Shown one piece after another: positions 28,951-52,852 of a stretch of 64,000 bases of DNA (positions are counted from its first letter, which is position 1; every line of letters starts with the position of its first letter). This DNA comes from an uncultured Desulfospira sp. (lineage in GTDB: Bacteria > Desulfobacterota > Desulfobacteria > Desulfobacterales > Desulfobacteraceae), in assembly GCA_963663165.1 (NCBI GenBank), contig OY760175.1, positions 1,952,001-2,016,000 on the forward strand. Reading direction: 5' to 3'. The notes beneath the pieces were generated by a model. That model did no database searches. It was not told the DNA's origin and saw only the letters and a list, made by a program, of their open reading frames with translations. The position numbers were made by a program, and so were the translations under genes.

Positions 28951-29463
28951 TCAAAACCCAAACACGCCAAAATCAATGGCTTCGTTCTGACGATGGCTGC
29001 ACTTTCCGGTCATTTTATCCACGGTAATTTCCAGAAACGGCGACGGCGTATCCGGACGGCAGAATTTTTCAGCGGCTTTGGAATAGTCCGAATTCATGAC
29101 CTTCCCGAGTTTTTCCCAGCCCGATTTCATCTGTTCGCTGTCCCGGACCACTGTGGCGGTCCCGAAAAAGGAAGCCCCCAACCAGCAGGAAAGGTCTTTG
29201 CTTGTTAAGGTGATTTTAAGCAGCACCTTGGGATTGGTGCGGATATTTTTCATGGTGGTGCCTTTAGGGTTGATCATGAATCCGATGCGGTTTTGGGCCG
29301 GCAGAAAATAGGTGGCTTCAATGGCAAAGGGGGCGTTATCCTTATCCACCGTGCAAATGGAAGCCCAGTTGCCATGCTCAAGGGCTAAAAGGATCTCTTC
29401 AGATGTCATGTTGCGCAAGGTTGTTTTTCCTTTTTGTAAGGGGGTTAGACTGAAGGGTATCAA
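28951..29463 (-). CDS. Pyridoxamine 5'-phosphate oxidase-like split-barrel protein
   Basis: ICTVD..N.PFA, KGTTMKNIRTNPKV, ITVDKMTGK. Start may be about 29410. Confidence 0.75.
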   Translation of the reverse strand: MIPFSLTPLQKGKTTLRNMTSEEILLALEHGNWASICTVDKDNAPFAIEATYFLPAQNRIGFMINPKGTTMKNIRTNPKVLLKITLTSKDLSCWLGASFFGTATVVRDSEQMKSGWEKLGKVMNSDYSKAAEKFCRPDTPSPFLEITVDKMTGKCSHRQNEAIDFGVFGF

Positions 29464-29484
29464 GCACCTCCTTCAGTCTTCAGC

Positions 29485-29994
29485 CTATTTTCCTATTCCA
29501 TCCACAATCCCGGCAATAAATGCCCTGGCCTGTTCCAGATCCTTTTCATCGGGGTGTTTTTCAGCTTCTTTGAGCCGGGCCTGGCGTTCCGGGGTCATGG
29601 AGTGGTGGGGATCATTTTTCATCCGGCTCATCATTTCAATGATCTTGGGGTCCACCTTTCCCTGACACAAGAAATCCCCTAAAATAGTGTTGGCCGCCAG
29701 CAGCTCTTTTACTTTTTTACGGCAGCTGTCGGCATGTTCCGAATCCGGTTCCGCGCCCAGGGTGCCGAACAAAGCAACGGACTTGTTCTTAACTTTTTCA
29801 AAAAACGTTCTGGACTTTTCATCGGCCGTGCCCTTATCCACCCAGTATCCCAGGACCACCAGATCATGGGATTCAATATCCGGGTCTGCTTCCACGGCAA
29901 CGATATCCTTGGGCTCAGGCAGGGCTTCAAAAAGGGCATTGGCCACTTTCTGGGTGTTTCCGGTCCGGCTGGAAAAAACTACAATAGATTTCAT
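29485..29994 (-). CDS. Flavodoxin-family protein, HmuF-like
   Basis: SSRTGNT FMN loop; GYWVDKGT, GTLGAEPDSEH, PHH.MTPER, HPDE.D resemble Fusobacterium HmuF as recalled; lies in a HutW operon. Confidence 0.85.
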   Translation of the reverse strand: MKSIVVFSSRTGNTQKVANALFEALPEPKDIVAVEADPDIESHDLVVLGYWVDKGTADEKSRTFFEKVKNKSVALFGTLGAEPDSEHADSCRKKVKELLAANTILGDFLCQGKVDPKIIEMMSRMKNDPHHSMTPERQARLKEAEKHPDEKDLEQARAFIAGIVDGIGK

Positions 29995-30100
29995 TTTCTA
30001 TTCCTTGAATTAGTGATTAGCTGTTAGTGATTAGCTGTTAGCTGTTAGCCTTTAGCTTTTAGCCTTTAGTGATAGCTGTCAGTTCCTGGCATTTCATCCT

Positions 30101-31519
30101 TCATCCTTTCAAAAGGGGCAGGGCCAGCTCATGGGTGCAGGCCTTGGCCATGAGTTCCAGATCATGGGTAATCACCAGCACCAGGATTCCGCTGGCCGCA
30201 AGTTCCCGGATCATGTTGGAAATAATGTCCATATTCACCCCGTCAAGGCCGGACGTGGGTTCGTCCAGGATCAGGACCCCCGGGGACTTAATCAGGGCTG
30301 CGGCAATGACCAGCCGCTGTTTTTGCCCCCCGGAAAGGGACTGGGGATGCCGCTTTGAAAAACGGGAGAGGTTGAATTTTTCCAAAAGGTCCTGGACATC
30401 TTCCGTTTTCCCTTTAAATTTTTCCCCGGAAAAATAAAGCTCTTTTTCAACGGTTTTCATGTGAAGCTGGTGATCGGTATTTTGAAGGACAATGCTCCCT
30501 TTTTTCAAAAGCTGCTTTGGGGTCAGACTGACCCCGTCCTTGCGGATCACGGCGTTTTTCACGGGCAGCAGGCCGGTGAGCATCCGGGCCAGGGTGGTCT
30601 TGCCGGTGCCGTTGCCCCCGGTCACGGCCACGGCCGCGCTGCCGGGAAAGGATAAGGAGGCCCTATCGTAAATCAGGGGTTTATTTTTATACCCGAATGT
30701 CAAATTTTCAACGGTGATCTTGTGGTCCCGGACTTTAAAGGTGCCGTCGGCCCGGCCGATTTCCGGCAGGCGCCCGTTCAAAGGGGATACCCGGGCGGCG
30801 CGCAGCCCGTACCTTTCCCGGAAGGCATCATCATCCAGGGTGTCAAAACCGGTTTCTTCAGCGATTTTCCCGTTTTCCAGCACCAGGACCCGGTCAATCA
30901 ATCCCTTAAGCCAGTAAAGCCTGTGGTCGGCAATAAAAAGGGTCATGCCCTGGGCTTTTAACTTGGCCAGGTGGCCGGCAAGCTCCCGGGTGGCCACGGG
31001 GTCCAGGTTGGCCGAGGGTTCATCCAGGATCAACAGCCTGGGATTCAGGGCCAGGACAGACCCCAGGGCCAGCTTTTGTTTTTCCCCTTCAGACAAATCA
31101 AAAATGGAATTTCCCATTACTTTTTGAAGGCCGAACCGCCGGGTTTCCTTAGCCAGGATCTTGGCGATCCGGTCCGGGCGCTCTCCCCGGCACTCCAGGG
31201 CAAACCCCATTTCATCGGTAGCATTCAAGGCGAAGAACTGGTGTTCCGGGTCCTGGAACATGGTGCCCACGGTCTTTGAAATTTCGTGAACACTTAACGC
31301 TTTTGTCTCCCGGCCATTGATCTTCACACTGCCTTCAAAGATCCCTTTAAAATAGTGGGGAGAAAGGCCGTTGATCAGCCGGATCAGGGTGGATTTCCCG
31401 GAACCGGAGCTGCCGGTGCAAAGAACGGCCTGGCCTTGTGGCACATCAAAACTGATCTGTTCAACGGCCGGTTCCGGATGAAAGGGATAGGTATAGGTGA
31501 CGTTTTTAAACTCAATCAT
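30101..31519 (-). CDS. ECF transporter fused double ATPase (A-A')
   Basis: Two Walker A (GSSGSGKS, GGNGTGKT), two signatures (LSEGE, LSGGQ), FQDPEHQFF. Confidence 0.9.
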   Translation of the reverse strand: MIEFKNVTYTYPFHPEPAVEQISFDVPQGQAVLCTGSSGSGKSTLIRLINGLSPHYFKGIFEGSVKINGRETKALSVHEISKTVGTMFQDPEHQFFALNATDEMGFALECRGERPDRIAKILAKETRRFGLQKVMGNSIFDLSEGEKQKLALGSVLALNPRLLILDEPSANLDPVATRELAGHLAKLKAQGMTLFIADHRLYWLKGLIDRVLVLENGKIAEETGFDTLDDDAFRERYGLRAARVSPLNGRLPEIGRADGTFKVRDHKITVENLTFGYKNKPLIYDRASLSFPGSAAVAVTGGNGTGKTTLARMLTGLLPVKNAVIRKDGVSLTPKQLLKKGSIVLQNTDHQLHMKTVEKELYFSGEKFKGKTEDVQDLLEKFNLSRFSKRHPQSLSGGQKQRLVIAAALIKSPGVLILDEPTSGLDGVNMDIISNMIRELAASGILVLVITHDLELMAKACTHELALPLLKG

Positions 31520-32253
31520 AAAAAACAGGCCCCCATCAGCATCAGGGCCGCCCCCATGGTCAGGATATCGGCAATCCCGATCACGGAAGTTGAGGTCCGG
31601 ACGGCCCGTGAGGCCCCAAGCCCTTTTAACTCGGCTGCCACACTCAGTTCATCTGCAGAGCGCAGTGCCCGGATCACCACCGGAACAAACAAAAGGCGCA
31701 TGGTCAGCAGCGGATGCACGGTCATGGAAAATATGGAGAGCCTGTACCCCTTGGTCTTCATGCTCTCGGAGATCTGTTTGACATCGTTGATAAAGCTTGG
31801 GATAAACCGGACCATCACCGTGGTGGGCAGGTAAATAAAAAAAGGAAGGCGCAGTGCCTTTAAGGTGGTCATAAACTCCTGGACCCGGCAGGAAAGGGCC
31901 AGGGCCAGGATCACATTAACCAGGATCATGATTCTTAAAAACGGATTAATAAACGGTGCCACCCCCTTTTGCCCCATATCGGGCCAGACCACGAGCATGA
32001 CCTTAACGCACCCCATGGCAACGATAAATATAGCAAAAACGGCGGCATAGGCCACCCCGGTCACGGTAAGCCTGCCATGGGCCGCCGTATAGATGAAGCT
32101 TGCCGCAAACAGCAGGGTCAGGCAATACCAGGACTGGATAAAAATAATCCCCACAGAGGCCAGAAGGCAGACCGCCATCCGGGTCCTGACATCAAGAGAT
32201 CGGACAAAATTGCCGGGTTTCTCGGGCAGATCACTCCCGGATAATACCTGCAT
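31516..32253 (-). CDS. ECF transporter T component
   Basis: LDVRTR, VMVRFIPS, PVVIRALRSADELSVAAELKG. Confidence 0.88.
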   Translation of the reverse strand: MQVLSGSDLPEKPGNFVRSLDVRTRMAVCLLASVGIIFIQSWYCLTLLFAASFIYTAAHGRLTVTGVAYAAVFAIFIVAMGCVKVMLVVWPDMGQKGVAPFINPFLRIMILVNVILALALSCRVQEFMTTLKALRLPFFIYLPTTVMVRFIPSFINDVKQISESMKTKGYRLSIFSMTVHPLLTMRLLFVPVVIRALRSADELSVAAELKGLGASRAVRTSTSVIGIADILTMGAALMLMGACFL

Positions 32254-32782
32254 GGCGAAGCTCCTTTACAAAAAGAATGCCGGTTCCAAGTCCCATCAGA
32301 CAGCCCACATACCCCAGGCCCACCACCACGGCAGCCATGATAAAAAAGCCAAGCTGCTCCCGGTACATCAAATAGGAATACCCAAGGGAAATCCCCCGAG
32401 AGAGAAAATCAAACAATGCCACCCCGATGACCAGCACCACGGGGTGTTTAAATCTTCCCGTGGCTGCCATGGCAAGATCGCACAGGCAGCCGGCCAGGAT
32501 CACCCCGATAATGGTCATGGGATTGCCGCCCATCAGAATCAGGGAGACCAGGCAGGAAATCAGGGAAAACAGGCTCAAGACCCCGAATTTTCTGACCTTG
32601 TAAACCAGGATAATGAGCAGCGATGTGGCCACGGTATTTTTCATCACCAGGGTGACCGGATTCATGCCGCCGCCGGCCAGGGCGATCATCATGGTGGAAA
32701 TCTTAATCAGGCCGGCAAAGGTGCCGATGGTGATCAGTTCTCCCGGGGTCCAGTAAGGATGTTTTCTTTTGGGATCAGTCAT
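32231..32782 (-). CDS. ECF S component, MptD/Trep_Strep-like
   Basis: About 6 TM; ELITIGTF, KVRKFG, C-terminal LRHAGII. Confidence 0.8.
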   Translation of the reverse strand: MTDPKRKHPYWTPGELITIGTFAGLIKISTMMIALAGGGMNPVTLVMKNTVATSLLIILVYKVRKFGVLSLFSLISCLVSLILMGGNPMTIIGVILAGCLCDLAMAATGRFKHPVVLVIGVALFDFLSRGISLGYSYLMYREQLGFFIMAAVVVGLGYVGCLMGLGTGILFVKELRHAGIIRE

Positions 32783-34164
32783 TTGACAATCTCTTTATAA
32801 AAATCGATCATGCCCTGGGCAAGGTTGGTCTGCCAGAATTCTCCGGCCCGGGTCAGGGTCATCCACCCCTTGGAAAGGCTAACCAGGCCGGCCTGTTCCC
32901 ACTGGGAAACCAGGGGCCTGAATACGGATTCCATATCCATGTCCAACGGGGCCCCGGCGGTTTTAAGGTTAATCCGGCCCATTTCAAGTTCCCCTGCCAC
33001 AATCCGGATCAGCGGCTCGGTTTCATCAGGCTTCATCATATGAACTAAGGGTTTTTCCCACCCTGCACGGTCCAGATATTTTTTTAAATTGCCTTCCAGA
33101 AAATAGCCGTACCCGTTCATAAATCCACCGGCCCCGGACCCGAAGCCTAAGCAGTCGGTCTTGGCCTTCATGAACCGGTTGTACAGATTCCTTTCCCTGA
33201 AGGTCCGCCCCCAGTGGTCAATGGATAGACGCCGGTACCGGGCCTGTTCCATAATAGCTCCCCCCCTTTCAAACATGGCGGCCCGCATGGGGCGGTCTGC
33301 CACCGGCGGCACCTTTTGGTCGGCAATGGCCCGGTCCAGTTTTCCGCCGGGAAACCGGATGAGCTGGTAAAGGTCCACCCCGTCAATTTCAAGGCCCATA
33401 AAGGTGTCAAGGTCCTTTTCCCAGGTCTCCATGGTCTGGCCGGGCAGTCCGTAAATCAGGTCAATGATGACGGCGGCCTGGTCCGTGGCCTTAAGGGCGT
33501 TTAAACAGGCGATGATCTCCCTGATCCCCTGAATGCGGCCCACGCTTTGGCGGATTTTGGTATCAAAGGTCTGGACTCCGATGGAAAACCGGTTGGCCCC
33601 GCCGTCGATACAGGCGGCTATCTTGTCCTCACCAAAGCCGAACACCCGGCCTTCCACGGTAATCTCGCAGTCATTGGCCAGGGGCAGATACTGCCTGGCA
33701 GCTTGCAGAACCTTTTTAAGGTCCCGGGTAGACAAGGCCGTCGGGGTCCCCCCGCCCAGGTAGACCGCATGAACAGGCCAGGAATTCACCATGGGCGAAT
33801 CCGATGCGGCCGCCATCTCCTTAACCAGCGCATCCACATAGGCGTTCTGGTTTTCCTCATTTGCCGGGTTGCCGAAAAAACCGCAGTACAGGCACCGGGT
33901 TTCGCAAAACGGGATATGGATATAAGCGGTGGTTTTCCCCCGCCGGGGGGTTTGAGCCAGGGCCTGCCAGACCCGCGGCCGTTCCTCTTCCGGAACTGGC
34001 TTGCCGCCAAGCCCCGCATGGACAACCGCTTTTCTGGCAAAGGCATCGGCCATGGGGGTATCGCTGATCCGGGCAAAATAAGGCCGCTGTGCCGAATCCT
34101 GGCCAAAGGATTCCATGAGCTTCATTTTGGAATCGACACTGCTGTGGGATACATCCTTTTTCAT
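32779..34164 (-). CDS. hutW: Anaerobic heme-degrading radical SAM methyltransferase HutW/ChuW (copy 1)
   Basis: YIHIPFCETRCLYCGF, YLGGGTPT, LPLANDCEITVEGR, NRFSIGVQ, ERNLYN, LT.AG.FW..NL. Confidence 0.88.
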   Translation of the reverse strand: MKKDVSHSSVDSKMKLMESFGQDSAQRPYFARISDTPMADAFARKAVVHAGLGGKPVPEEERPRVWQALAQTPRRGKTTAYIHIPFCETRCLYCGFFGNPANEENQNAYVDALVKEMAAASDSPMVNSWPVHAVYLGGGTPTALSTRDLKKVLQAARQYLPLANDCEITVEGRVFGFGEDKIAACIDGGANRFSIGVQTFDTKIRQSVGRIQGIREIIACLNALKATDQAAVIIDLIYGLPGQTMETWEKDLDTFMGLEIDGVDLYQLIRFPGGKLDRAIADQKVPPVADRPMRAAMFERGGAIMEQARYRRLSIDHWGRTFRERNLYNRFMKAKTDCLGFGSGAGGFMNGYGYFLEGNLKKYLDRAGWEKPLVHMMKPDETEPLIRIVAGELEMGRINLKTAGAPLDMDMESVFRPLVSQWEQAGLVSLSKGWMTLTRAGEFWQTNLAQGMIDFYKEIVK

Positions 34165-34246: not shown

Positions 34247-34279
34247 AAGTTTAATAGCTCAAACTTTTTGGGGTGTCAA
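34247..34279 (-). promoter_or_regulatory. Putative DtxR/MntR operator overlapping a sigma-70 promoter of the hutW-ECF operon
   Basis: AAGTTTAATAGCTCAAACTT (34247-34266); TTGACA at 34279-34274 and TATTAA 17 bp downstream. Confidence 0.65.
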
Positions 34280-34303: not shown

Positions 34304-35047
34304 TCAGGGAGTTGCAGGCAGGGGAATTTGCGTTTCAACGTGAACGTCATCAATCAAAGCAGCTAATCCAGTCACACTGGACAGCTTTACATAGATGGTT
34401 TCCGGATTATCATTGAACCTGATTTGGGCAACGGCCCGGCACCAATGGCCGGACCCGCCGCCACCGACATTTCCCACTGTGGTCACACATACGGCAATGC
34501 CGTTTATATCCGCAATCTGGGTACCGTCATATGACCTTCCGACCCGGATGGCACAATTATCTTTTTCAAAACTCGAATAATAAGTCCATTGAATCCGGGC
34601 CAAAGTCGGCCCTGCTTTTTCAGGGGAAAGCGGCTGGGGAATCTTAAACCATAAACTGGTTTCGCCCATGCCGCCGTAATATCCGCTTCTGCTCCATTTT
34701 CCCACCATGGGATACCAGCGCCAGCCGCCAAGCCCGATTTTGGAGCATTTGGCACGAATCATCAGGGGCTGTCCCCCGGAATTGACCCAGTTACCGCCAT
34801 CGGGCAAAAGGGGGATCTTTGGTGCCACTGGATCAGGATCACCGGATTGAGGCGGAACATGGAGTGCCTCAGCATTAGCGGCATTAAACCCCCAGCTCTG
34901 GCAGGTGGTTAACCCGGGATGCCCGCTGCTGCTGCAATCAGCATGGCCGGAAGATAGCGTGTCCCAGGCCTGCCCAAGGATGACAGCAACGAAGACGACG
35001 GCCAACATTCTAAAATGTTCAAATTTTTTTATTAGCATAGAATTCAT
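34304..35047 (-). CDS. Hypothetical secreted Cys/Gly/Trp-rich protein
   Basis: 247-aa ORF with a hydrophobic N-terminal segment; no motif recognised. Confidence 0.65.
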   Translation of the reverse strand: MNSMLIKKFEHFRMLAVVFVAVILGQAWDTLSSGHADCSSSGHPGLTTCQSWGFNAANAEALHVPPQSGDPDPVAPKIPLLPDGGNWVNSGGQPLMIRAKCSKIGLGGWRWYPMVGKWSRSGYYGGMGETSLWFKIPQPLSPEKAGPTLARIQWTYYSSFEKDNCAIRVGRSYDGTQIADINGIAVCVTTVGNVGGGGSGHWCRAVAQIRFNDNPETIYVKLSSVTGLAALIDDVHVETQIPLPATP

Positions 35048-35245: not shown

Positions 35246-36951
35246 TCAGGCCTTAAAGAACCGAAACCCTTTATTTCCTGCGACATATATCAAAATGGCC
35301 GTTATTGTAAAATCGGGAAAAACTTTTAAGCACTCTTTTTTATATCCTTGCACCTGTTCCAGATCTTTTTTGGGCGGGGCTTTCATCGATAATATGGTAT
35401 CGGCGTACTGCCCCCGGCCGTACTTGAACTCAATAATGGTTCTGGTGTCCTTGTATTGTGTGTGGTATTTGCCGGTCATTTCCCAGTCGCTCCGGCCCGA
35501 CGGGTAGTTGACTTCCATGGAAAAGGTAAAATACCGGGACAGATAACGGGTGCAAAGCTCGTAAAACGCGCACCGGACAAAATTTTCATTTATCTTGTCC
35601 CAGGCCTGGGCCGGGAACTGCCCAAGGTAGGTGTCATAGAACCCTGAAAACAGAGCTTCCATATCAAGGTCGGCCAGAAATGTTCTAAAAAATTGGGTAT
35701 AGCCTTTGGAGACTTCCAGGTTATTTAATTCATTGTAATAATCAACAAAAATTTCGCGCAGGGTATTATTGGGAAGACACATGCTAAAATCATCAAAACA
35801 GGTGACCATGCCAAGATAAAACAAAGATACCGGATAATAGTCCTTTTCAAAAAACTGCCGCATATTGAATTTTGAAACCAATTGCTTAAGATCGTATTCA
35901 AGGCTGTTGTCAAACACCAGGGCATCCATCATGGCATCGGTGTTTTCCTTCACCGTGGTCAACCGCTCTATCCAGGACACATCGGTTTTCAGATTATCGT
36001 CAATCAGTTCTCTGGGGATTTCACCATTATTTAAAGCAAAATTTTTTAAAAAATAAGTAACAATGGTGGAATTATAAAGGGTATCTGCCACATCCGGCAA
36101 AAAACGGTAACCGTCATAATGATTTTTCATGATTCCAAGTATTTCAGGCATACGGACAGGATCAAACCCATAAGACTCAAACACATTGCCAAGGTATTTT
36201 TTGGTTTCTTCGTGGGTAAAACCCAGCATATTTACCAATTGTTTTTTTAACGTCACTATCTCGGCAATATTAAATCCTGAAGTTAAATCATCAATGGTAA
36301 TGGGCAGAACACCGGTGATAAACACCTTGCCGATGCTCTGCATTTCAATGCCGGACTTTATGACTTTGAAAAAGGAACGTAAAAAGGAATCCCCGCAGGT
36401 CAGTTCCTTGTACAGGTCGTCGTTGCGGGTGGTGATCAACTGATTGGTGAAGTTATCGTACTCGTCGATAATGATGTAAATCGGCGCAAGGTTGCGGTCT
36501 TTTACCATGGACAGGATCTGCTTGAGACGGACGGCCAGGGCCTGGTCCTTGTTCATATCACTGTCCTTGAAATATTTATTGTAGGAATGAAGGAAGGAGC
36601 CCAGTGATGCGCCCTGGGTAAGGTTGAAATTTTCCTCAATTATGCCAAGATCCGGTTTCACCGGCACTTCGGAAAAATTTAGGCGCAGCACTATAAAGCT
36701 GTTTTTAAGCGGGGTCGGGTTTTGCCCGATCCAGGTGTTTCCAAAAAGCGGTGGAAATTTATCCTTGCGGTTGATATCGTAATAACATTCAAGTGTGGAA
36801 CACCAAAGGCTTTTGCCGAAACGCCGGGGACGCAAAAAACCGGTGCCTTCCAATTTTCAAGGGCGGCAATGTGCCGGGTTTTATCTACATAGTAATATCC
36901 TTGTTCCTGTATTTCTTCAAAGCTGCCGACAGCATAGGGTATCTTTTTCAT
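35246..36951 (-). pseudogene. AAA-ATPase-like / PD-(D/E)XK nuclease protein, apparent 1-nt deletion at 36834-36839
   Basis: MKKIPY...YYYVDKT joins LRPRRFGKSL if one T is added; IIIDEYD, FITGV, GRSD...IIEFKY. Confidence 0.85.
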
Positions 36952-37150: not shown

Positions 37151-37162
37151 CGTTTCTTGTTT

Positions 37163-37990
37163 CTATTTTCTTGTTCGTCTCAACCCGGCCAGGCCCACAA
37201 GACCTGCGCCCAGCAAGAAAAAGGTGCCAGGCACGGGAACCGAACTTACTGCGGTTGTTGAAATATAAGGTGCAGTGGCACCCTCACGGTCAAAGCTTGC
37301 ATAAACGCTGCCGCACTCTGCCGCTGTGGCAAAAAGCTCCGTCGCATAGGCGTTGGCTAGTTCTTCGTCTTCTTGCAGACTGTCAAAAAACGCCTGGGTA
37401 AGTTCCGGTATCCAGCCGTCATATACATACCCGCTGGCAAGAACAATACCGTTGTTGCTGTCCGGATCAAGAACCCAGCTATTGTACAGATCGGTAATGT
37501 CTAAACTATAAGTGCCGTTGGCTGTCATGGTCAGGCTTGATATAGCGGATTGCGTCAGCAGGGTATTTTTAAGATCTACGACGTTGGCATCATCTCCGTA
37601 GGCTGTCAGTGTCTCCACATCAACATCACCGGGATCATAAACGTCCAGATATGCCGGCAGATCTGCAGTTGTAGCAGGCGGATTGCCGCCGGTCATTGAC
37701 CCTGTTCCTAAAAGGTCGATGACCAGATATGCCGATTCAACGGTCTCAGTTGCCAGAACATTAAATTTCACCCAGCTATAACCCCACATATCTTCGTCTC
37801 CGCCAAACACCTCAAGGGCTGACACTACAAAGTAATCCTTGGAGTCGTCCGGATAAGTAGTATAGGACCCCTGACCACTCATATAGGTGTACCCGGTCAT
37901 TATACTCTCGCCAATAACTTCGGCAGATGCGGTGCCGGTAAATATCATTCCAATCATTGCCAGTGCGATAAACATGTTTTTAAATTTCAT
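37163..37990 (-). CDS. PEP-CTERM protein, Met-conserved DNRLRE-like domain (paralog A)
   Basis: Signal peptide TASA-E; YTYM, WGY..VKF, VESAYLV, DIT.LYN.W, NNGIVL; VPVPG-TM-RRTRK. Confidence 0.9.
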   Translation of the reverse strand: MKFKNMFIALAMIGMIFTGTASAEVIGESIMTGYTYMSGQGSYTTYPDDSKDYFVVSALEVFGGDEDMWGYSWVKFNVLATETVESAYLVIDLLGTGSMTGGNPPATTADLPAYLDVYDPGDVDVETLTAYGDDANVVDLKNTLLTQSAISSLTMTANGTYSLDITDLYNSWVLDPDSNNGIVLASGYVYDGWIPELTQAFFDSLQEDEELANAYATELFATAAECGSVYASFDREGATAPYISTTAVSSVPVPGTFFLLGAGLVGLAGLRRTRK

Positions 37991-44329: not shown

Positions 44330-45082
44330 TTAATTGATTTTAGTTATTTTTCTGCGCCGCAGACCGGCCAAAGCCGCAAGACCCGAGCCCAGCAGCAGAA
44401 CCGCCCCTGGAATCGGTACGGAAGAGACTGAAACTTGTCCGTTGCGAAGGGCTATAGCACCGACACCGGAGACACCGTCCTTGGTGTAGCAGCCCTGGCC
44501 GCCGGTGGGCATCCTAAAGAGAAAGGCACTATCGGAATCATAAATTGCAGCCTCCGTCCCTGTCCAGTACCACCCATAGCTATCTAAATTTTCAAAATCT
44601 CCTGTTTCGTTCAGCCCGTATTCGCCTCTGGAAAGACGATTACCTGAGGTATCCTGCAATCCCAGGTTGCCCAGTTCCTCATAAAAGAGATGGCCCAACT
44701 CGGAAGTGATGATATTATACCCTAACGTGGTGGTACCATCATATCCGGATTTCAGGGTGCCATCCACAGTGGTTGGCAGCCGCCAGGACGACCCACCCCA
44801 GTCCACGGTATATCCATCATAAAGGATAATGGTCAAAACACCTTCTTCATTCAGGCTTGATGCCCAGGCAACCTGGTCGTCCCAGGTTGAAGCATCATTA
44901 TCATAATCCAGCCACACCACTGAATTGCCATTGTTGTCATCATCCCAGATAAGCTTGTACTCTGATCCGTTGTAAGTAGCCGTGCCGATAGTGGTCAAAG
45001 CGGCGTAGGCCGAAGGAGCAAATCCCAGAGCGACGGCCAGCAGGGCCATGGTGAATGCCATCATAATTTTTCTTAATTTCAT
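44330..45082 (-). CDS. PEP-CTERM protein, DUF1566/Lcl-like
   Basis: LIWD....VVWLD, W..Q..WA, WRLPT, ELGHLFYEELGN, YWTGT; VPIPG-TM-RRRK. Confidence 0.85.
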   Translation of the reverse strand: MKLRKIMMAFTMALLAVALGFAPSAYAALTTIGTATYNGSEYKLIWDDDNNGNSVVWLDYDNDASTWDDQVAWASSLNEEGVLTIILYDGYTVDWGGSSWRLPTTVDGTLKSGYDGTTTLGYNIITSELGHLFYEELGNLGLQDTSGNRLSRGEYGLNETGDFENLDSYGWYWTGTEAAIYDSDSAFLFRMPTGGQGCYTKDGVSGVGAIALRNGQVSVSSVPIPGAVLLLGSGLAALAGLRRRKITKIN

Positions 45083-45563: not shown

Positions 45564-46319
45564 TTAACTTCTGCGGCGCAGGCCCACCAGGCCCACCAGG
45601 CCGCATCCGAGCAGCATCATGGTGCCGGGAACGGGAACGGCGCTGGTGGTTTCAATATAAAGAGCCGTGGTGCCGTTAAGGCTGTTACCGGTTTTGCCTA
45701 CACCAGTGAGGCCTGAGAAAACAGCACCGACAGCGCCCACTGCACCGCTGGCTTCATTTGAATTGGGGCTGGCACATACCAGGACAAGACCATTGTTTTC
45801 GATCTCGCCTGAAACCCAGGCATTGTAAATATCTGTAATGTCGATGCCCCAAACGCCGTTTGAGGTCATGGTGGCGGTAGTCAGCAGAGAGGTCGTTCCG
45901 GTACTGGAGTCTGCCAGATCCGCATAAAGAGTTGAAATGGTTGAAGAGGTAAGGTCTGCCACATCCGTGTCACCCGGTGAATAGATATCCAGAACTGCCG
46001 GATAATCTACCGTGGCATCAGTATAGTTCATGCTGCCCACAGCCAGCAGTTCCAGATACAGAACCGCACTGTCCACGGTTTCAGTACCAATATCGCTGAA
46101 TTTAATGGTGGCATAGCCCCACATATTTGTACCGGCGTATTCATATTCCAGGGGACCGGCGATAAAATAATTATCTTCCGAAGTTTGGAATTGCCCTCCC
46201 ATATATGCATAGGAGGTAGAGCTTGCACTGTAAGTATCAGCCAGAGCCGTACCGGCAAAAGCAAATACACTGAACATCAGTGCAATGGCCAATACAATGG
46301 CATTCTTTCTTAATTTCAT
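45564..46319 (-). CDS. PEP-CTERM protein, Met-conserved DNRLRE-like domain (paralog D)
   Basis: YAYMGG, MWGY..IKF, VGSM, DITDIYNAW, NNGLVL; VPVPG-TM-RRRS. Confidence 0.9.
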   Translation of the reverse strand: MKLRKNAIVLAIALMFSVFAFAGTALADTYSASSTSYAYMGGQFQTSEDNYFIAGPLEYEYAGTNMWGYATIKFSDIGTETVDSAVLYLELLAVGSMNYTDATVDYPAVLDIYSPGDTDVADLTSSTISTLYADLADSSTGTTSLLTTATMTSNGVWGIDITDIYNAWVSGEIENNGLVLVCASPNSNEASGAVGAVGAVFSGLTGVGKTGNSLNGTTALYIETTSAVPVPGTMMLLGCGLVGLVGLRRRS

Positions 46320-46511
46320 TTTTCTCATTCCTTTCTTGTTGTAAAATTTAAATAAATAGGATTAATTGGTTTGTTGAAAAAAAAGCTGATTTTCCTTTTA
46401 ACGAATAACCTCAAAAAGTATCACCCCCTTTCGGTTTGTTAGCTGTTAGCTTTTAGCTGTTGCTGTGAGCCATGAGCTATGAGCTGTCAGCAGCTAAGGG
46501 CCTCTTACGGT

Positions 46512-49500
46512 TTAACGGAACAGGCTGTTGATAAAACAGCCGCCGCCCACGCTCTCATCCGGGGTGCTTGCCGTCGCTTCAACTGCGGTGCCGCTCACGG
46601 TCCCGTACACTGAGCAATGATCAGTGGTAAAGGTCACGGTCTGATTTGCCTCATCCACCGAGACGATATTATCCAGGTAGATCTCTTCAATGTCGGCATC
46701 CTCGTCCCCTGAGAAAAAGGTTTCCAGGTCAGGGGCATGGACAATTCTCCAGGACCCCAGGGTGAAGGGGTCATCGGATCCGGCCGCACTGGCGTCATAG
46801 GAGATGGTGATCTCAATCTCCAGAATGTCGGCATCATCCAGAGGCTCCCCGTTTTCATCGTAAAGCTCAAATAAAAACAGGCCGGTGGCACCCCCGGGAC
46901 TTGTGCTGCCGGTGTCCACCACCATCACATAGATCTTTCCGACTGTGGTTGAGACACTGTTGGCCGTAATGGTGATGGTAACGGGGTCCCCTGAAATCGT
47001 ATCAAAATAGATCTCTTTGGAGCCGGTCAGGCCGGCAGGATCATCAATGGCGGTGATCAGCATTTTGGCGCCGTCTTCTCCGGCGGTCCCGCCGATCTGG
47101 GTTGAGTCGTCGCCTTGGGCCATTTCAATACAGACAAAGCTGCCGAAACCGCCCAACTGCTCTAAGGCATCCGTGCAGATGCCGGTGAGCCGCTCTTTTT
47201 CTTCATCCGTGGTACCGGCCGGCAGGTAAAGGGGGGCCTGAGACGTGCCGGACTCCTCTCCGATACCAATATAGATCCGGTCATCTTCGCTGCCGCAGGT
47301 TACGGTGATGCTGCAAAGCCCGTAGTCATCCGGTGCCGTAAAGGTGACCGTGCTGCCGGTAGTGGCGGACAGGGCCGAAGCTGACACATCAGTGCCGTCA
47401 GGCCCCTCAACTGTCCACTGGTAAGTGCCGGAACCGCCCGAAGCCGTCAGGCTTCTGGTCTCGCCCGGGAGCATGGCCGCCGTGGCATTGACCTGGTCAG
47501 TGATGCGCAGTTTGTCCGTATCATATGTGACCAGCAGGTAAGGAGGATCATCGGCATCCTCCCTTGCCACCAGGTGCCAGCTGTATCCGTCGCCGTAATC
47601 AGCACCGTAAATATCGGTTGAACCGGTCCAGGACTGATCGTCATGGTCTTTGAGTTCCAGGCCGTTGTTCTCCCACTGGCCGTTCAGCCATCCCTTTACG
47701 ATGGGGGCCACATCAACTTTTCCCGTGGAGTAGGAGCCTGTGGTGTGGGTCACCAGGACACTGGGGGCTTCGGGCACATACCAGGGTTTGTTGGTCATAT
47801 CCACATACCCGTCACCGGTCACGGCTTCGGTCCAGTAAAAGTCATCTACGGTATCTCCGGTTTTCTCCTGTGTGTCGGTGGAAAGGGCGTATATAGTACC
47901 GTACATGGCCGTACCGTCCGGGGCCGGGGGCCCCACATCCATCTCACCGGCACTGTAGTCGTCCATGGTGTAAACCAGATATGCGGCTTCAATATCTTCC
48001 GTGGTCAGCCCAAGATCGGTTATGGGGCTTAAGTCAAACCGCATAAGAATCCGGGCATCCACAATGTAAACCGCCCCGGCCTTGAGCTTGTATTCCCCCA
48101 TGGAGGTCCCCTGGGGATACCCCTTGCCGTTGCCCATGCCCCCATACAGCACATAGGTGTCTTCGGACACCTCACAGCGAACCGTGCTGGCCACGAGGGT
48201 GGTGAAACTCCAGGTCACGGCAGATCCTAAGGTGTTGCCGGCAAGATCGGCGGCAGTGGCCGCTATGGTAACGGTATATGAGGTTTGCTCTTCAAACACC
48301 ATATCAGGGATAAAGACCAGAACGCTTTTCCCTTCCCAGGAGAGGCTGCCGTCCACTGCCGGGCTAAGGGTAAACCCGTTCTCAACGGTCTCCTTGTCCA
48401 TGTCTTCACTGAAGGTAACCGTTATCGTATCGGTAACAGCCGCCTCAGCCCCGTCTTCAGGGCTGACAGACAGCACCGTGGGGGGACACTGGATATTCCA
48501 GGTGATATTTTCCAGATCAGACCAGACCCCCAAACTGTCCTGCACCTGGATTTTCAGGGTATGGTCCCCGTCGGTCAGGCTGCTCAGTTCCAGGGTGTCG
48601 GAAGGATCACAGGCATCGCTCCAGTCTCCGTCGTCAAGGCAATACCGATAGGCATACACCCCGGTTCCTGATATGGTCAGGCTTATGGTATCTTTTACAA
48701 TGGCGGTATCAGGGGTTCCTTCAACTTCAGGGTCAGGGGCCACATAGGCCCCGGTGGTGAAGCTGAACGTGTACTCGTTTTCCAGGCTTTTTTCTGCGGC
48801 ACTTTGGGCCCCCGTGCCCATGGTCACGGTATAGGCGGTCTCATGGGTTAACAGATCTGTCGGCGTAAAGGTTACGGCCGTTTCAAGGTCATTCCAGGAA
48901 AAAGTCCCGGTTACCGCAGTCTCGGTACTTGAGCTTAAGACCATGGAAAAGGCCTGTTCCACACTTTCGGTGGCCATGGGCTTGTCAAAGCCAATGGTAA
49001 CCGATGTTCCCACATCAATACCGGTAGCGCTTGCTTCCGGAGTTGTGGTATCGACTGTGGGGGCTGATTCAGGGGCAGAAAACGTAATGTAGGGCATGGT
49101 CCCCAAGGTCCCGTTAAGGCCGGCATATTTGGTTCCCACAGGACCCAGGTTAGAGGCATTGGATGCCCCTGAATTTTCACTGTCGCTCATTAAAACAAGG
49201 CCGTTATTGGCCTGATCGCCCCGCACCCAGGCATTATAGATGTCTGTGATGTCGATGGCATAAGTCCCGTTGGCCGTCATGGTGAAGTCCGAAACAATAG
49301 GGGAAGAGGAGGCCTTAAGGGTTGTGTGCAGGGTGGCAGCGTCGGAAACCGTGGCAAGTGAGGCCACATCCGTATCACCGGGGCTGTATATATCCAGTTT
49401 TCCGGGATACGTTTCACTGGCGTCCTCAAGGTACATGCTGCCCACTTTCAAAAGATCAACGACCAGATAAGCACTTTGTACCTCCTCGGTTCCAATGGTG

Positions 49501-49721
49501 TCAAACTTGATAAAGGCAAACCCCCACATATCGGTCCCGTTGAACATATATGTCATGGGACCTGCGATAAAATAGCTTTGTTCGGAGATATTAAAACCTG
49601 TTCCGCCCATATAGGCATACCCGGTCAGGGTACATGGGTAATCGGCAGATGCGGTATGGGAACAAAACAGGTTCCCGGTCACCAGCACTGCTAAAATTGT
49701 TATGATTCTGATTAACTTCAT
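46512..49721 (-). CDS. 1069-aa multidomain surface protein: two DNRLRE-like domains, Ig-like repeats, C-terminal GGGCFI signal
   Basis: N-domain homologous to paralogs A-D; PTV...P...FDKPM/FSEDM...FTT Ig repeats; DTYV...RILMRFDLS...WLNG.WENNG; ends GGGCFINSLFR. Confidence 0.88.
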   Translation of the reverse strand: MKLIRIITILAVLVTGNLFCSHTASADYPCTLTGYAYMGGTGFNISEQSYFIAGPMTYMFNGTDMWGFAFIKFDTIGTEEVQSAYLVVDLLKVGSMYLEDASETYPGKLDIYSPGDTDVASLATVSDAATLHTTLKASSSPIVSDFTMTANGTYAIDITDIYNAWVRGDQANNGLVLMSDSENSGASNASNLGPVGTKYAGLNGTLGTMPYITFSAPESAPTVDTTTPEASATGIDVGTSVTIGFDKPMATESVEQAFSMVLSSSTETAVTGTFSWNDLETAVTFTPTDLLTHETAYTVTMGTGAQSAAEKSLENEYTFSFTTGAYVAPDPEVEGTPDTAIVKDTISLTISGTGVYAYRYCLDDGDWSDACDPSDTLELSSLTDGDHTLKIQVQDSLGVWSDLENITWNIQCPPTVLSVSPEDGAEAAVTDTITVTFSEDMDKETVENGFTLSPAVDGSLSWEGKSVLVFIPDMVFEEQTSYTVTIAATAADLAGNTLGSAVTWSFTTLVASTVRCEVSEDTYVLYGGMGNGKGYPQGTSMGEYKLKAGAVYIVDARILMRFDLSPITDLGLTTEDIEAAYLVYTMDDYSAGEMDVGPPAPDGTAMYGTIYALSTDTQEKTGDTVDDFYWTEAVTGDGYVDMTNKPWYVPEAPSVLVTHTTGSYSTGKVDVAPIVKGWLNGQWENNGLELKDHDDQSWTGSTDIYGADYGDGYSWHLVAREDADDPPYLLVTYDTDKLRITDQVNATAAMLPGETRSLTASGGSGTYQWTVEGPDGTDVSASALSATTGSTVTFTAPDDYGLCSITVTCGSEDDRIYIGIGEESGTSQAPLYLPAGTTDEEKERLTGICTDALEQLGGFGSFVCIEMAQGDDSTQIGGTAGEDGAKMLITAIDDPAGLTGSKEIYFDTISGDPVTITITANSVSTTVGKIYVMVVDTGSTSPGGATGLFLFELYDENGEPLDDADILEIEITISYDASAAGSDDPFTLGSWRIVHAPDLETFFSGDEDADIEEIYLDNIVSVDEANQTVTFTTDHCSVYGTVSGTAVEATASTPDESVGGGCFINSLFR

Positions 49722-49739: not shown

Positions 49740-51863
49740 TTATAATGCGATCCTCAAACCAGCGTAAAAATAGGCGCCCAGAGGAGAATCGAGCATGCTT
49801 TCCCTGTGGCCGCCCTCATAATCGGCCACATCCACGGGCGGTTCTTCATCAAATATGTTCCGTCCGCCCGCGAATACGCTAACAGACGGGGTCAGGGCAT
49901 AGGTGATCTGGGCATTGAAAAAATCAAAGTACTCGATTTTCAGAGCCGGAGATGTATCGCTTAAGTATTTGCCCCGATAGACATAGCGCAGGTTGGCGGT
50001 CAGCTTGTCCTTATACCGGTAGCTTAAGGTGGCGTGTATCTGGGACCGGGGGCGGTTGGTCAGGTCCTTGCCGTCCGGGTCTGTTGCCTCAAGATAATTG
50101 GCGGTTACATCCAGGTCAAACCCCCATGGAAGGGGCAGGCCTATACCGAGTTCCGCGCCTTTAAAAGTGGATGTCCCTTCCAGATTGATATAGGTGGTCT
50201 CGGTATTGGTATTGGATGTGCCTTCCGTGATGATTTCGGTTTCAATCATATTATCAATGTCGTTGCGGTACATATCAACCGTCAGTTGAAGACCGGCGGG
50301 ACCGAAAGGGGTCCAGACCGCCCCCACATTAAAATTGACCCCTTCCGAAGGCTCAAGGTCGGGATTTCCGTAGATATCGTTCCAGCCCATGGCACCAATG
50401 AAATTGTCATGAAGCTGATAAAGGGTCGGGGCCTGGAAAGAGCTTGAAGCAGAGGCCCGGAACGCCAGGTTCTCAGACCATTCGTACCGGGCGGAAATTT
50501 TGGGGGCCAGGTTGGTTCCGAAATCGGAATATTCCTCCACACGTCCGGACAAGGTCACGGTCAGCCGGGTGAAAAGTGTTATGCGGGTTTCACCAAACAG
50601 GGCGTATACATTCCGTTCCTCGACAAAGTCCCGGTATGGGGCATCCACATTTTCCCGGTTAAAGCCGGCCCCCAGGAAAAACGTTAACCAGGGCTTATAA
50701 TCCCAGTTCATATGGGCGTAAATATCCTGGGTATCGGACGTCAGATCGCCGTTATAATCCGGATCTTCGCTCTGGCGGTACTCGGTATCGGACAGGCCGA
50801 GTCCTAAGCCGGATTTAACCCGGAACGTATTAAACTCCCCTTCCCAGGTCAGCCCGCCGTAATAATCTTCCTTTTTGCTCTCACGGTCCTTGTTCAAATC
50901 ACCGGTTACCCCGACGCGCATCACTGAGTCTGTCAGGTTATACCGCAGTTCACCATCCAGGGTCTGGGTGGGGCTGATGTCATAAGATCCGTTGATGTTG
51001 GCCCCGGACTGTTCCACTTCCGGGGATGTCCAGCGCGGGTTGTCCGGGGTGCGGTCATAATGCTGGCTTTCCCGGCTGTTTGCACTGATATTGACAAATC
51101 CTTTTTCACCCACAGCAAACCCGGTGGAAACTTCACCTTTCTTTTCTTCACCATCCCCATGGATGGAACCGCCGGACTGAATGCTGGCGGTAAAAGGCCG
51201 GTTATACTTGCGCAATACAATATTAATTACACCGGCCACAGCGTCAGCTCCGTATTGGGCGGATGCACCGTCCCGGAGAACTTCGATACGCTCAATGTCG
51301 CTGATGTTGATGCCGCTGATATCAGTAAAGGCGAATCCGTCCTTATCCGGCCGGGTGCCGGGCTGGCGACGGCCGTTGATAAGGACCAGCACATGGTTGG
51401 CGTCCATACCCCGCATGCGAAGGGTCTGGACGCCGGGGGTGGCATTCATGTCCGGGCACTGGACCAGTTCAACCCCCTGAAGCACCTCTATGGCCTGGTT
51501 TAAGGAAACCGCACCGATCTCCTGTAAATCTTCGCTGGTGACAATCTGGACCGGCACGGCCATTTTTTCAGGGGTTTCAGTGCCGGTACGGGACCCGGTG
51601 ACCACAACGGTTTCCATCTGGTAAACCGAACTGCCTTTTTGCTGCAGGCCGGATACATCCTGTTGTACAATATCTGAAGCATTTTCTTCCGACAGGGCCG
51701 GTACCTGCCCATGCACCTTTATCGAAGACCATTCCTCTGCGGGGGCATCAGAAAATCTCAGGCATAAAAAAAGGATGGCTGCCATTGCCGAAAGCCTCGA
51801 TATGCCCCCCCCCGGGATGCACAAACAGCTGCCCTGCCTGCCCGTTTTTTCAAACCAATTCAA
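49740..51863 (-). CDS. TonB-dependent outer-membrane receptor
   Basis: TonB box ETVVVTG, IERIEVLRDGASAQYGADAVAGVINI, FQAP...H...NPDL, C-terminal beta-strand FYAGLRIAL. Confidence 0.93.
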   Translation of the reverse strand: MNWFEKTGRQGSCLCIPGGGISRLSAMAAILFLCLRFSDAPAEEWSSIKVHGQVPALSEENASDIVQQDVSGLQQKGSSVYQMETVVVTGSRTGTETPEKMAVPVQIVTSEDLQEIGAVSLNQAIEVLQGVELVQCPDMNATPGVQTLRMRGMDANHVLVLINGRRQPGTRPDKDGFAFTDISGINISDIERIEVLRDGASAQYGADAVAGVINIVLRKYNRPFTASIQSGGSIHGDGEEKKGEVSTGFAVGEKGFVNISANSRESQHYDRTPDNPRWTSPEVEQSGANINGSYDISPTQTLDGELRYNLTDSVMRVGVTGDLNKDRESKKEDYYGGLTWEGEFNTFRVKSGLGLGLSDTEYRQSEDPDYNGDLTSDTQDIYAHMNWDYKPWLTFFLGAGFNRENVDAPYRDFVEERNVYALFGETRITLFTRLTVTLSGRVEEYSDFGTNLAPKISARYEWSENLAFRASASSSFQAPTLYQLHDNFIGAMGWNDIYGNPDLEPSEGVNFNVGAVWTPFGPAGLQLTVDMYRNDIDNMIETEIITEGTSNTNTETTYINLEGTSTFKGAELGIGLPLPWGFDLDVTANYLEATDPDGKDLTNRPRSQIHATLSYRYKDKLTANLRYVYRGKYLSDTSPALKIEYFDFFNAQITYALTPSVSVFAGGRNIFDEEPPVDVADYEGGHRESMLDSPLGAYFYAGLRIAL

Positions 51864-52024
51864 CGGATCACTCCTGTTCGAACCGTATGGGCCTTCACGG
51901 TCATTGTTTTATTCCGGGTTTCAGTTAATTTTTTCGTCATTAAGCACAAAAACAAGACCCTTTCCTCCTCATCTCATTTGTTAACAGAAAAAATATTAGT
52001 TTTAACTACACTTATTAGTTTATA

Positions 52025-52068
52025 AAGTTCGTATGTTCGAACTTATTTTTTATTTACTTATTTGTCAA
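52025..52068 (-). promoter_or_regulatory. Putative DtxR/MntR operator overlapping the receptor promoter
   Basis: AAGTTCG-TATGTT-CGAACTT (52025-52044) with perfect arms; TTGACA at 52068-52063 and TAAGTT 17 bp downstream. Confidence 0.7.
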
Positions 52069-52378
52069 GAACAAATTTCACTAAAATTATGTTTTTTACC
52101 CCCTACCCCTCCCTCCACCCCATCCTGGCCACCACCCCCTTACACCGCCCTGTCAGCACAAAAATTTACCTTGCCTTTTGTCACCACATTATTAATACTC
52201 TGCTCACCCAAGGCGGACAGCACTGCTCAACCACCAGACAACCCCGCAGAATGATCCGGCCCTAAACCCGCCTGATGATTTAATCATCCGGTACCGGCCG
52301 CCAACAGGGGCGGCAATTTTCATCAGCCGACACTGGAATCACGCAAACAAACCGCCACATTGTGACCCGGGAGGAAAA

Positions 52379-52852
52379 ATGAAGAATCAATACCCGCCGT
52401 TAACCCCTACTCAGGAAGACTACCTGGCCGCTATTTTCAGACTGGCCCAAAAAACCGGCGAGGCCCGTTCTAATGCCATTGCGAACACGCTGGGGGTATC
52501 AAAATCCACTGTACCGGCAGCCCTCAAATCCCTGGCCGCCAGAGAACTGATCGTCTACGAGCCCTACAGCCCCATCCGCCTGACACCCAAAGGCTATGAA
52601 ACCGGCAAACGGATTGCCCACAGAAACTTTATCCTCAACGAATTTTTTGTAAAAGTCCTTCAACTGCCTGAACAGGAGGCCAGAAACACCGCCTGCCGGG
52701 TGGAGCATGCCGTCAGCGACGACACAGTCCTTGACCTGGGCCGTTTCATTTTCTTCCTGAAAGAATCCCGGGTTGATCTGACAAACTGGAAAGAAAAATA
52801 CAAGATCCCCAAAGACCATGCATTTGAACTCAACCCTTTTTCTGATCTTTAA
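52379..52852 (+). CDS. DtxR/MntR-family metal-dependent repressor (short form, no FeoA domain)
   Basis: EDYL..I, LGVSKSTV, I.LT.KG, HR...EFF...L, ACRVEH. Confidence 0.92.
   Translation: MKNQYPPLTPTQEDYLAAIFRLAQKTGEARSNAIANTLGVSKSTVPAALKSLAARELIVYEPYSPIRLTPKGYETGKRIAHRNFILNEFFVKVLQLPEQEARNTACRVEHAVSDDTVLDLGRFIFFLKESRVDLTNWKEKYKIPKDHAFELNPFSDL

Follow-up and report, generated by a model that had tools for sequence, protein, structure and literature searches.

Gene organization of the locus

The window analysed here is a 64,000-nucleotide stretch of DNA from an uncultured Desulfospira sp. (GenBank assembly GCA_963663165.1, contig OY760175.1, positions 1,952,001 to 2,016,000 of the forward strand), and coordinates given without a locus name refer to it. 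Positions 28951 to 52852 carry a locus that an earlier note, made from the letters alone, had read as a heme-scavenging system built on an array of PEP-CTERM surface proteins. Open reading frame mapping and family scans located all genes named in that note at the place and on the strand given. On the minus strand, the gene of a TonB-dependent receptor is followed by that of a 1069-amino acid (aa) surface protein, seven PEP-CTERM genes, hutW1 and an eighth PEP-CTERM gene. Behind these lie hutW2, the S, T and AA genes of an energy-coupling factor (ECF) transporter, a flavodoxin gene and a PNPOx-like gene, and a DtxR/MntR-family gene is divergent. Related loci and genomes used for comparison are designated by L and G numbers, respectively.

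52379..52852, plus strand: metal-dependent repressor of the DtxR/MntR family, divergent from the receptor gene (Pfam)
49740..51863, minus strand: TonB-dependent receptor of a discrete, unstudied clade (Pfam plug and barrel)
46512..49721, minus strand: 1069-aa surface protein with a YxYM domain, two Big_5 domains, a second, DNRLRE-like Met-bearing domain and a C-terminal GGGCFI tail
45564..46328, minus strand: PEP-CTERM protein with YxYM/GSM domain, candidate hemophore (AlphaFold model, CBM96-like fold)
44330..45082, minus strand: PEP-CTERM protein with Lcl_C-like domain; the genome has two further paralogues at other loci
43442..44302, minus strand: PEP-CTERM protein with YxYM/GSM domain (domain search)
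42837..43493, minus strand: PEP-CTERM protein of no family, 31-33% identical to the 41243 protein
41987..42718, minus strand: PEP-CTERM protein in which the PEP motif is internal and the tail is duplicated; the genome has two further paralogues at other loci
41243..41917, minus strand: PEP-CTERM protein of no family (family scans)
40182..40979, minus strand: PEP-CTERM protein with YxYM/GSM domain (domain search)
38235..39833, minus strand: HutW1, class C radical S-adenosylmethionine (SAM) enzyme of ChuW/HutW type with N-terminal PCP_red domain (TIGR04107)
37163..38023, minus strand: PEP-CTERM protein with YxYM/GSM domain (domain search)
32779..34164, minus strand: HutW2, second ChuW/HutW enzyme (TIGR04107)
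32231..32782, minus strand: ECF S component, Trep_Strep/MptD-like (Pfam Trep_Strep 34.9 bits, cut-off 28.7)
31516..32253, minus strand: ECF T component (Pfam CbiQ)
30101..31519, minus strand: ECF double ATPase (family scans)
29485..29994, minus strand: HmuF/FldH-type flavodoxin with helical cap (PDB match 8g64)
28951..29463, minus strand: PNPOx-like split-barrel protein with a putative HutZ/HugZ-like role (Pfam PNPOx_N)

The HutW, ECF and flavodoxin core

HutW1 and HutW2 scored 510.9 and 520.6 bits on TIGR04107, for which the equivalog cut-off is 400, and the HemW/HemN models gave 143-159 bits. Both proteins contain the CxxxCxxC motif, which starts at residue 147 in HutW1. A tree that held no characterised enzyme placed 12 HutW rows in a clade apart from HemW/HemN-like proteins (support 100/99). 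HutW2 is 51% identical to HutW1, and HutW1 is 81% identical to the enzyme of L044. The sole PDB match of the flavodoxin was FldH (8g64, E 3e-23), and its His131 was aligned to His134, the heme ligand of FldH according to PMC10404700. This cap His was kept in 10/10 flavodoxins of related loci and is missing from the other paralogue in the genome. The HutW and HmuF identities proposed earlier were thus upheld by family cut-off, radical SAM motif and cap His.

HutW scored above the cut-off in 10 of 201 genomes of the order, the own genome counted. Among the nine other hutW loci of this order, seven combine ECF S, T and AA genes with a flavodoxin and a receptor, and none holds a YxYM gene. The PNPOx-like gene occurs at four of the nine, and also in L044 and L046; its product gave no PDB match. 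Ring opening by HutW, ChuW and HmuW and the chemistry of HmuF are known from PMC10404700 and PMC10114669, and anaerobic opening of the porphyrin ring is the predicted activity of HutW1 and HutW2. The core is a recognisable anaerobic heme-use module of a known kind, and it very probably serves heme use.

The YxYM/GSM domain

The YxYM/GSM domain, named in the earlier note, was found in four of the eight PEP-CTERM proteins and at the N-terminus of the 1069-aa protein, but the other four array members lack it. It is confined to this locus within the genome. Its homologues comprise 39 near-length sequences, four long forms and, at E<=0.001, 70 representatives, many long ones of which are partial DNRLRE matches. 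They are anchored by PEP-CTERM, by dockerin plus PEP-CTERM, or by an Ig stalk.

The AlphaFold model of the 45564 protein (predicted local distance difference test score 87.6) matched PDB entries 8wab (Z 14.6, root-mean-square deviation 3.4, 171 residues aligned) and 7vbo (Z 12.7) at 14-15% identity, and HHalign related the domain at 98.6% to a Pfam CBM96-positive protein. On NF033679 (cut-off 34 bits) the four stand-alone copies scored 23.9-30.1 bits and the two-domain large protein 36.4; there was no Pfam CBM96 match. Searching the PDB with the YxYM profile gave no match at E<=1, and a bridging search with the CBM96-positive homologue gave nothing useful. No known hemophore fold was among the fold matches listed, and HmuY was found neither in Pfam nor in those matches.

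Residues Y37, M40, Y51 and M97 were each present in 39/39 homologues. The family has a median net charge of -21, the window copies carrying 2-5 Lys+Arg against 23-37 Asp+Glu, and His is nearly absent (0-1 per window copy). With the profile, 1/401 genomes was positive in the own phylum, namely the own genome with none in the 400 others, and 1/401 in the phylum of G736, that genome alone; G224, a genome of the same genus, yielded neither the domain nor an orthologue of HutW. Carriers of the system are few and scattered. That the domain binds heme is judged a little better than an even chance. Held somewhat below even is the wider proposal that YxYM/GSM proteins are a new hemophore class, in which a carbohydrate-binding-module fold would act as a bis-Met ferrous-heme trap on a PEP-CTERM, dockerin or Ig-stalk anchor and, together with a His/Met receptor clade dedicated to it and surface proteases encoded nearby, might mine the hemoprotein iron of dead cells without oxygen in sediment sulfate reducers and planctomycetes.

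A PEP-CTERM motif is visible in all eight array proteins, with a Pfam match at E<=0.01 in six and a score over gathering in four of these. The genome has two full-length exosortase matches. By signal peptide, PxP motif, transmembrane helix and basic tail the array proteins qualify as exosortase substrates, and they are predicted from their sequences to reach the surface. PEP-CTERM genes as such are common here, since a simple pattern found about 65 genome-wide, of which this array is the largest cluster. YxYM copies number four in the window and one each in L044, L054 and L055, and the array of eight genes has expanded locally. In related arrays there are also further Met-bearing domains, and proteases of which one has a Pfam dockerin domain. 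In the 41987 protein the PEP motif occupies residues 168-190; behind it, an insertion of an inverted repeat resembling repetitive extragenic palindromes, and a duplicated membrane tail, carry the protein beyond its usual end (41987-42140, minus strand). A cohesin identity suspected for this protein had no Pfam support.

Four array PEP-CTERM genes, three of them YxYM genes, are preceded by a conserved leader consisting of a hairpin, then GAAAGGAGGTGAT, then a short downstream pairing (minus strand, sites 46419, 45361, 41100 and 38100). Elsewhere it stands before the YxYM or first PEP-CTERM gene (L044 ~9832, L053 ~9893, L055 ~9888, L093 ~11042), and its core occurs seven times in the genome, four of them here. 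Alignment of six leaders showed double changes in 6/16 predicted pairs, with no Rfam match; as a guess, the leader is possibly an mRNA processing or stabilising element. A second, unnamed surface domain bearing Trp and Met was seen at L044 10709-11530, L093 11123-11995, L045 7970-8848 and L046 10750-12249. Some copies are PEP-CTERM proteins, some are joined to a YxYM-like domain and others replace YxYM in the large protein, and the domain is a candidate for a further ligand-binding family.

The TonB-dependent receptor and the conserved surface unit

The receptor belongs to a clade of 36 clusters at >=521 bits, the next match scoring 169 bits. It was found in 2/151 genomes of the family and 2/401 of the order, and five Planctomycetota genomes gave no orthologue-level match. 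Heme receptors carry a FRAP/NPNL loop with a conserved axial ligand, and a plug His; similar loop ends are known in other receptor classes. In this clade H485 (33/36) and M492 (35/36) lie on a FRAP/NPNL-like loop (FQAP...NPDL). H686 (36/36) and M690 (34/36) are conserved in a second segment, and the plug H157 is present in only 26/35.

The window receptor scored 105.5 bits on the hemin model TIGR01785 (cut-off 316.85), 92.7 on TIGR01786 (cut-off 323.75) and 163.6 on the BtuB model TIGR01779 (cut-off 599.7), and is a member of neither the named heme-receptor families nor BtuB. An upstream cobalamin riboswitch is a feature of BtuB genes; none was found in the window or 10 related loci. Grouping with cobalamin or siderophore transporters had been named earlier as one outcome that would speak against heme. 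B12 and catecholate models do outscore the heme models, yet all scores lie far below the cut-offs.

The receptors usual at core loci share 37-88% identity with one another and 24-32% with the window receptor; in the three that were scanned, TIGR01785 was the best model (229-261 bits, below its cut-off). The window type stands directly 5' of hutW in L044 and directly 5' of the ECF S, T and AA genes in L055. G000, G209 and G055 all carry hutW and the window receptor clade, and none yielded an orthologue of the usual hemin-type receptor (best 28% or none). This absence and the gene position suggest that both receptors do the same job, and the window receptor probably imports heme or a close tetrapyrrole.

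The receptor, the large protein and a following PEP-CTERM gene were found together in all five loci read (window, L044, L054, L055 and L093, the last from another family of the same order). In the four loci other than the window, the large protein lies directly behind the receptor or behind intervening hutW or ECF genes. RefSeq accessions of the receptor and YxYM protein of an uncultured Desulfosarcina are five apart, in agreement with the gene order of L055. The check for conserved linkage that had been proposed therefore showed recurrence in other genomes, but the kept unit is the receptor, the large protein and one or a few PEP-CTERM genes.

YxYM loci in Planctomycetota

Twelve distinct full-length YxYM loci were compared. 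L056 was dropped as a duplicate of L042; L088, L089 and G209 were counted once with L044; and L093, whose domain is a more distant CBM96-like form, was counted for the receptor unit only. A hemP, ChaN, HutW-like or HmuF-type flavodoxin gene was present in the available DNA of 5/12, the neighbours being confirmed by Pfam. When CbiX-like, FeoB, system receptor, large protein and ECF genes were added, 10/12 had a marker, and the two blanks are shorter than 2 kb. No marker gene of any kind was found at 35 control loci, which are the weak partial matches L047-L051 and L058-L087, treated as generic DNRLRE and not as family members. L046 has the order DtxR, hemP, flavodoxin, DUF2023 and YxYM and, further on, ChaN, a HutW-like enzyme fused to a Trep_Strep S domain, T, an AA/flavodoxin fusion and PNPOx.

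Two side observations concern these genomes. Prepilin-type DUF1559-like genes adjoin the YxYM gene inside the iron/heme loci L041, L042, L043, L045 and L046. L094 (576-2923, minus strand), which belongs to the same genome as L045, has a HutW-like gene and, next after it, a gene that joins an ABM/IsdG-like heme oxygenase domain to a periplasmic binding domain.

The operator palindrome and the DtxR-family repressor

52025..52044, no strand: operator palindrome over the sigma70-like receptor promoter; same site in L044/G209
34247..34266, no strand: operator palindrome over the hutW2 promoter (sequence and genome scan)
52958..52977, no strand: third operator-like palindrome, downstream of dtxR; absent at the matching place in G209

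The 20-bp palindrome AAGTTYGA-N4-TCRAACTT occurs three times in the window at <=2 mismatches, against a mean of 0.04 in 100 shuffles, and these are the sole sites at <=1 mismatch in the 6.74-Mb genome. Its recurrence at promoters, claimed earlier, holds for the receptor and hutW2 promoters, which it overlaps as read from the sequence, but the third copy lies behind dtxR, and the gene after it, orf498, is present in 11/31 genomes searched. The consensus was derived from these same three sites, and independent support therefore comes from recurrence in other genomes. At <=1 mismatch the operator was found in L031, L034 (twice), L036, L043 and L044 among 21 related loci scanned, L089 being the L044 locus again, whereas 54 control loci (389 kb) had none at <=1 mismatch and 10 at 2-3 mismatches. 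The same-genus genome G209 has one site only. The whole 4.9-Mb genome G734 has a single copy, which separates DtxR from hemP at the YxYM locus, and none was found in G055, G735 or G736.

The repressor matched Pfam Fe_dep_repress and Fe_dep_repr_C, both above cut-off; on NCBIfam the MntR models gave 72-78 bits and DtxR 24 bits, all below cut-off. A DtxR-family gene is present at 5/9 other hutW loci and 4/12 YxYM loci. The DtxR/MntR assignment was confirmed by the winged-helix and metal-binding domains and by a palindromic operator over target promoters that recurs beside DtxR in two phyla; from this co-occurrence we infer that the operator and the DtxR-family protein are a pair.

Transcription units

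39966..40040, minus strand: c-di-GMP-I-GGC riboswitch before hutW1, its aptamer overlapped by a terminator hairpin (Rfam RF03167)
35246..36853, minus strand: AAA-ATPase-like/PD-(D/E)XK gene (Pfam), an interloper outside the system; no counterpart in related loci
34304..35047, minus strand: 247-aa orphan with hydrophobic N-terminus, of no family; no counterpart in related loci

The co-directional run described earlier is borne out in its order, but is broken by the last two genes above, which had not been listed. The riboswitch scored 65.7 bits (gathering 59), and the hairpin that overlaps it has a U-run. Because of these insertions and of the riboswitch and terminator hairpin before hutW1, the locus is not a single operon but at least two transcription units with insertions. 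In the promoter and terminator scan, promoter calls were near chance (28 vs 23).

Several minor features accompany this layout. A decayed copy of the c-di-GMP-I-GGC riboswitch with the same terminator hairpin lies at about 37056-37165 (minus strand), after the 37163 gene, and L055 has three such riboswitches, one of them before the large protein. Short tandem runs of a TTAGCTG-like 7-bp unit are intergenic at 30009-30081, 38115-38166, 39844-39942 and 46437-46470, some as inverted pairs. The 247-aa orphan is rich in Cys and Trp and has its own 18-bp palindrome upstream (35065-35082), unlike the main operator; family and homologue searches found nothing, with Atlas scores <=0.82.

Proposed mechanism and alternative explanations

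On balance, we consider it probable that the locus encodes a system by which anaerobes scavenge heme under repression by iron. At low levels of the metal, most likely Fe2+, the DtxR-family repressor would leave its operators and two units would be transcribed, one for the receptor and surface proteins and one for hutW2, the ECF transporter, the flavodoxin and the PNPOx-like protein. The YxYM proteins would be exported and anchored through PEP-CTERM and exosortase or through the Ig stalk of the 1069-aa protein. Heme would be caught by the two conserved Met in an aromatic pocket on the CBM96 scaffold, a ligation that would suit the reduced heme of anoxic habitats, and handed to the His/Met-lined receptor for passage across the outer membrane. 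The power would most likely come from a TonB-ExbB cluster, and the ECF transporter would bring heme into the cytoplasm. There the HmuF-type flavodoxin would deliver heme to HutW, which would open the ring and free the iron; the flavodoxin would also reduce the ring-opening product, and the two proteins would render it harmless. This analysis established which genes are present and how they are linked, the recurrence of the operator, the fold and the conserved residues, and the HutW/HmuF chemistry comes from the literature; we infer iron as co-repressor, heme as ligand of the YxYM domain, receptor and ECF transporter, the surface location and the hand-off. The cluster in question, DUF3450-ExbB-ExbB-TonB-TPR at 12574-18231 (minus strand), has no receptor of its own and may energise this one, because homologues lie within the hutW operon of L035.

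A number of observations weigh against this reading. The sole structural relatives of the YxYM domain are glycan-binding modules, and a wider alignment (n=32) keeps the two Met in 27/32 and 24/32. Four orthologues of the large protein carry another domain in place of the N-terminal YxYM, although they retain the second, DNRLRE-like domain with its invariant M594. For the four array genes lacking YxYM no link to heme was found. By profile and fold comparison, the receptor is nearer to CirA, FepA and BtuB than to PhuR, ShuA and HasR (profile E values CirA 9e-45, PhuR 5e-16, ShuA 4e-6; fold Z Cir 36.2, BtuB 35.7, HasR 33.2, ChuA 33.1), and the NCBIfam B12 model exceeds the hemin model. The best scores of the repressor are with manganese (MntR) models, the same genome also has Fur-family genes, and the operator was not found at <=1 mismatch in L045, L046, L053, L054, L055 or L093. 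No heme enzyme was found in the available DNA of L053, L054 and L093. The L046 enzyme reached 298 bits, under the HutW cut-off. Three of five Planctomycetota genomes, which are incomplete, gave no HutW-like match at E 1e-40, and in those three a CbiX-like chelatase adjoins the YxYM domain, a neighbour consistent with removal of iron from heme or with another tetrapyrrole. Finally, the contrast between YxYM loci and the marker-free control loci is weakened by controls that were not taxon-matched and by marker queries partly drawn from the test loci. The single pathway from capture to breakdown proposed in the earlier note is thus favoured by linkage, core enzymes, operator and Planctomycetota heme neighbours, but not by the B12/catecholate-leaning receptor and the four unlinked array genes.

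One rival reading is glycan binding. The core would still serve heme, and the YxYM proteins would be CBM96 glycan-binding or matrix proteins co-opted into iron-starvation regulons for particle or biofilm adhesion, with no heme contact, as the CBM96/DNRLRE neighbours in fold and language-model space, the c-di-GMP riboswitches of the window and L055, the abundance of PEP-CTERM genes and the dockerin-bearing protease of related arrays would suggest. We hold this to be unlikely: the domain is strongly acidic, its four copies in the window having few Lys and Arg; the genome has it at no other locus, and it keeps heme/iron neighbours in two phyla; and invariant Met is no feature of the described CBM96 site. 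Little credence is likewise given to a surface unit that shares only the regulator with the heme core and imports another tetrapyrrole or metal, such as cobalamin or corrinoid precursors, siroheme, chlorophyll breakdown products, or Cu, Ni or Co bound by Met clusters. The missing cobalamin riboswitch and the low BtuB score speak against it, as do the place of the receptor in the gene position of a hemin-type receptor that was not found in three genomes, and the hemP and ChaN neighbours. In its favour are the nearness of the receptor to BtuB and CirA, the CbiX-like chelatase beside YxYM in 4/12 loci, the CbiM/Q/O cassette after the locus and Gly-Met-Gly motifs in several different surface domains of these loci.

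A chance neighbourhood, in which a PEP-CTERM array has grown inside an ordinary heme operon, is very improbable. Foreign genes do interrupt the array, its content varies by genome and half of its genes are unlinked to heme, but receptor, large protein and PEP-CTERM gene follow one another in the same way in two families of this taxonomic order as well as in metagenome loci, and an independent association exists in Planctomycetota. Chance is therefore largely refuted for the YxYM genes and plausible for the other four PEP-CTERM genes.

Comparison with described systems

A radical SAM ring opener, a cap-His flavodoxin and a TonB-dependent receptor are shared, grouped at a single locus for iron uptake, with Fusobacterium nucleatum hmuTRUVWF, E. 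coli O157 chu and Vibrio hut as described in PMC10404700 and PMC10114669. The window differs from them in an ECF S/T/AA transporter for HmuTUV, a DtxR-family repressor with its operator, two HutW enzymes, an unrelated receptor clade and the surface proteins. Heme uptake by ECF transporters, as proposed here, is reported for LhaSTA (PMC7299338) and the L. sakei ECF system (10.1101/864751); these are Gram-positive, with no outer-membrane step, and are likened to the window ECF by function only.

For the surface proteins, the nearest precedent is ZepA, a His-rich PEP-CTERM exoprotein that supplies zinc under Zur (PMC10957091). According to that paper it likewise has a signal peptide and PEP-CTERM, belongs to a locus repressed by metal, with TonB-dependent transporters and further PEP-CTERM genes close by, and is sporadic in Proteobacteria and PVC phyla. 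Compared by description, YxYM proteins differ in having almost no His, two conserved Met, a CBM96 fold and heme-gene neighbours. Metal scavenging by the PEP-CTERM class is therefore not new; heme would be. Tfo, which resembles a hemophore and comes from an anaerobe, is reported to bear two Met in its heme pocket and to prefer ferrous heme (PMC6200708); HmuY/Tfo with HmuR resemble the window in that an anaerobe encodes a surface protein next to a TonB-dependent receptor, whereas YxYM proteins have another fold and another anchor. With the CBM96/DNRLRE modules 7vbo and 8wab the domain has in common the beta-sandwich fold and a DIT..WV..NNG signature. The CBM96 alginate binder described in PMC9971899 has a Lys/Arg groove and lies within a lyase, unlike the YxYM domain, which is acidic, stand-alone and below family cut-offs.

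No paper joining PEP-CTERM or DNRLRE to heme uptake was found among the top-ranked open-access literature. The earlier statement that no described system has this combination agrees with that search, but the core is known and ZepA precedes it in metal scavenging by PEP-CTERM proteins. The undescribed parts are the YxYM domain family and the receptor clade, and the system is one that works like hmu, chu and hut with a hemophore-like front end. A bacterium of sulfate-reducer type may thus combine known anaerobic heme breakdown with an unstudied receptor and new surface proteins that catch heme.

To our knowledge, nearly all described hemophores and cases of anaerobic heme breakdown come from host-associated bacteria. 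The locus puts an anaerobic heme pathway into free-living anaerobes, in whose habitats sulfide makes iron scarce, and cytochrome-rich necromass could be the source. If true, environmental anaerobes would have a new route to iron and a glycan-binding fold would have been converted to heme binding; a receptor clade and a DtxR operator common to two phyla would also be newly defined. As far as we know, PEP-CTERM passenger domains are mostly of unknown function; the family would gain a concrete candidate ligand and its second nutrient scavenger after ZepA.

Flanking genes

Directly downstream of the locus, 22389-28657 (minus strand) holds DUF4198, CbiM, CbiL-like, CbiQ and CbiO genes with a second DUF4198 gene, a cassette that is probably for Ni/Co uptake. 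A CO dehydrogenase-like gene lies at 3509-5530. Beside dtxR, at 53093-55224 (plus strand), orf498, encoding a 498-aa membrane/HEAT protein, is followed by a CPBP intramembrane protease gene. The genome encodes three GGGCFI-tailed proteins, and the pair was considered as a sortase for this tail. It was excluded from the parts of the system because the CPBP protein scored under all myxosortase cut-offs, orf498 is far commoner than the system among the 31 genomes, and 'CFI' does not occur in the myxosortase preprint. In L054 this pair is again found close to the receptor unit, adjoining a type II secretion system F gene.

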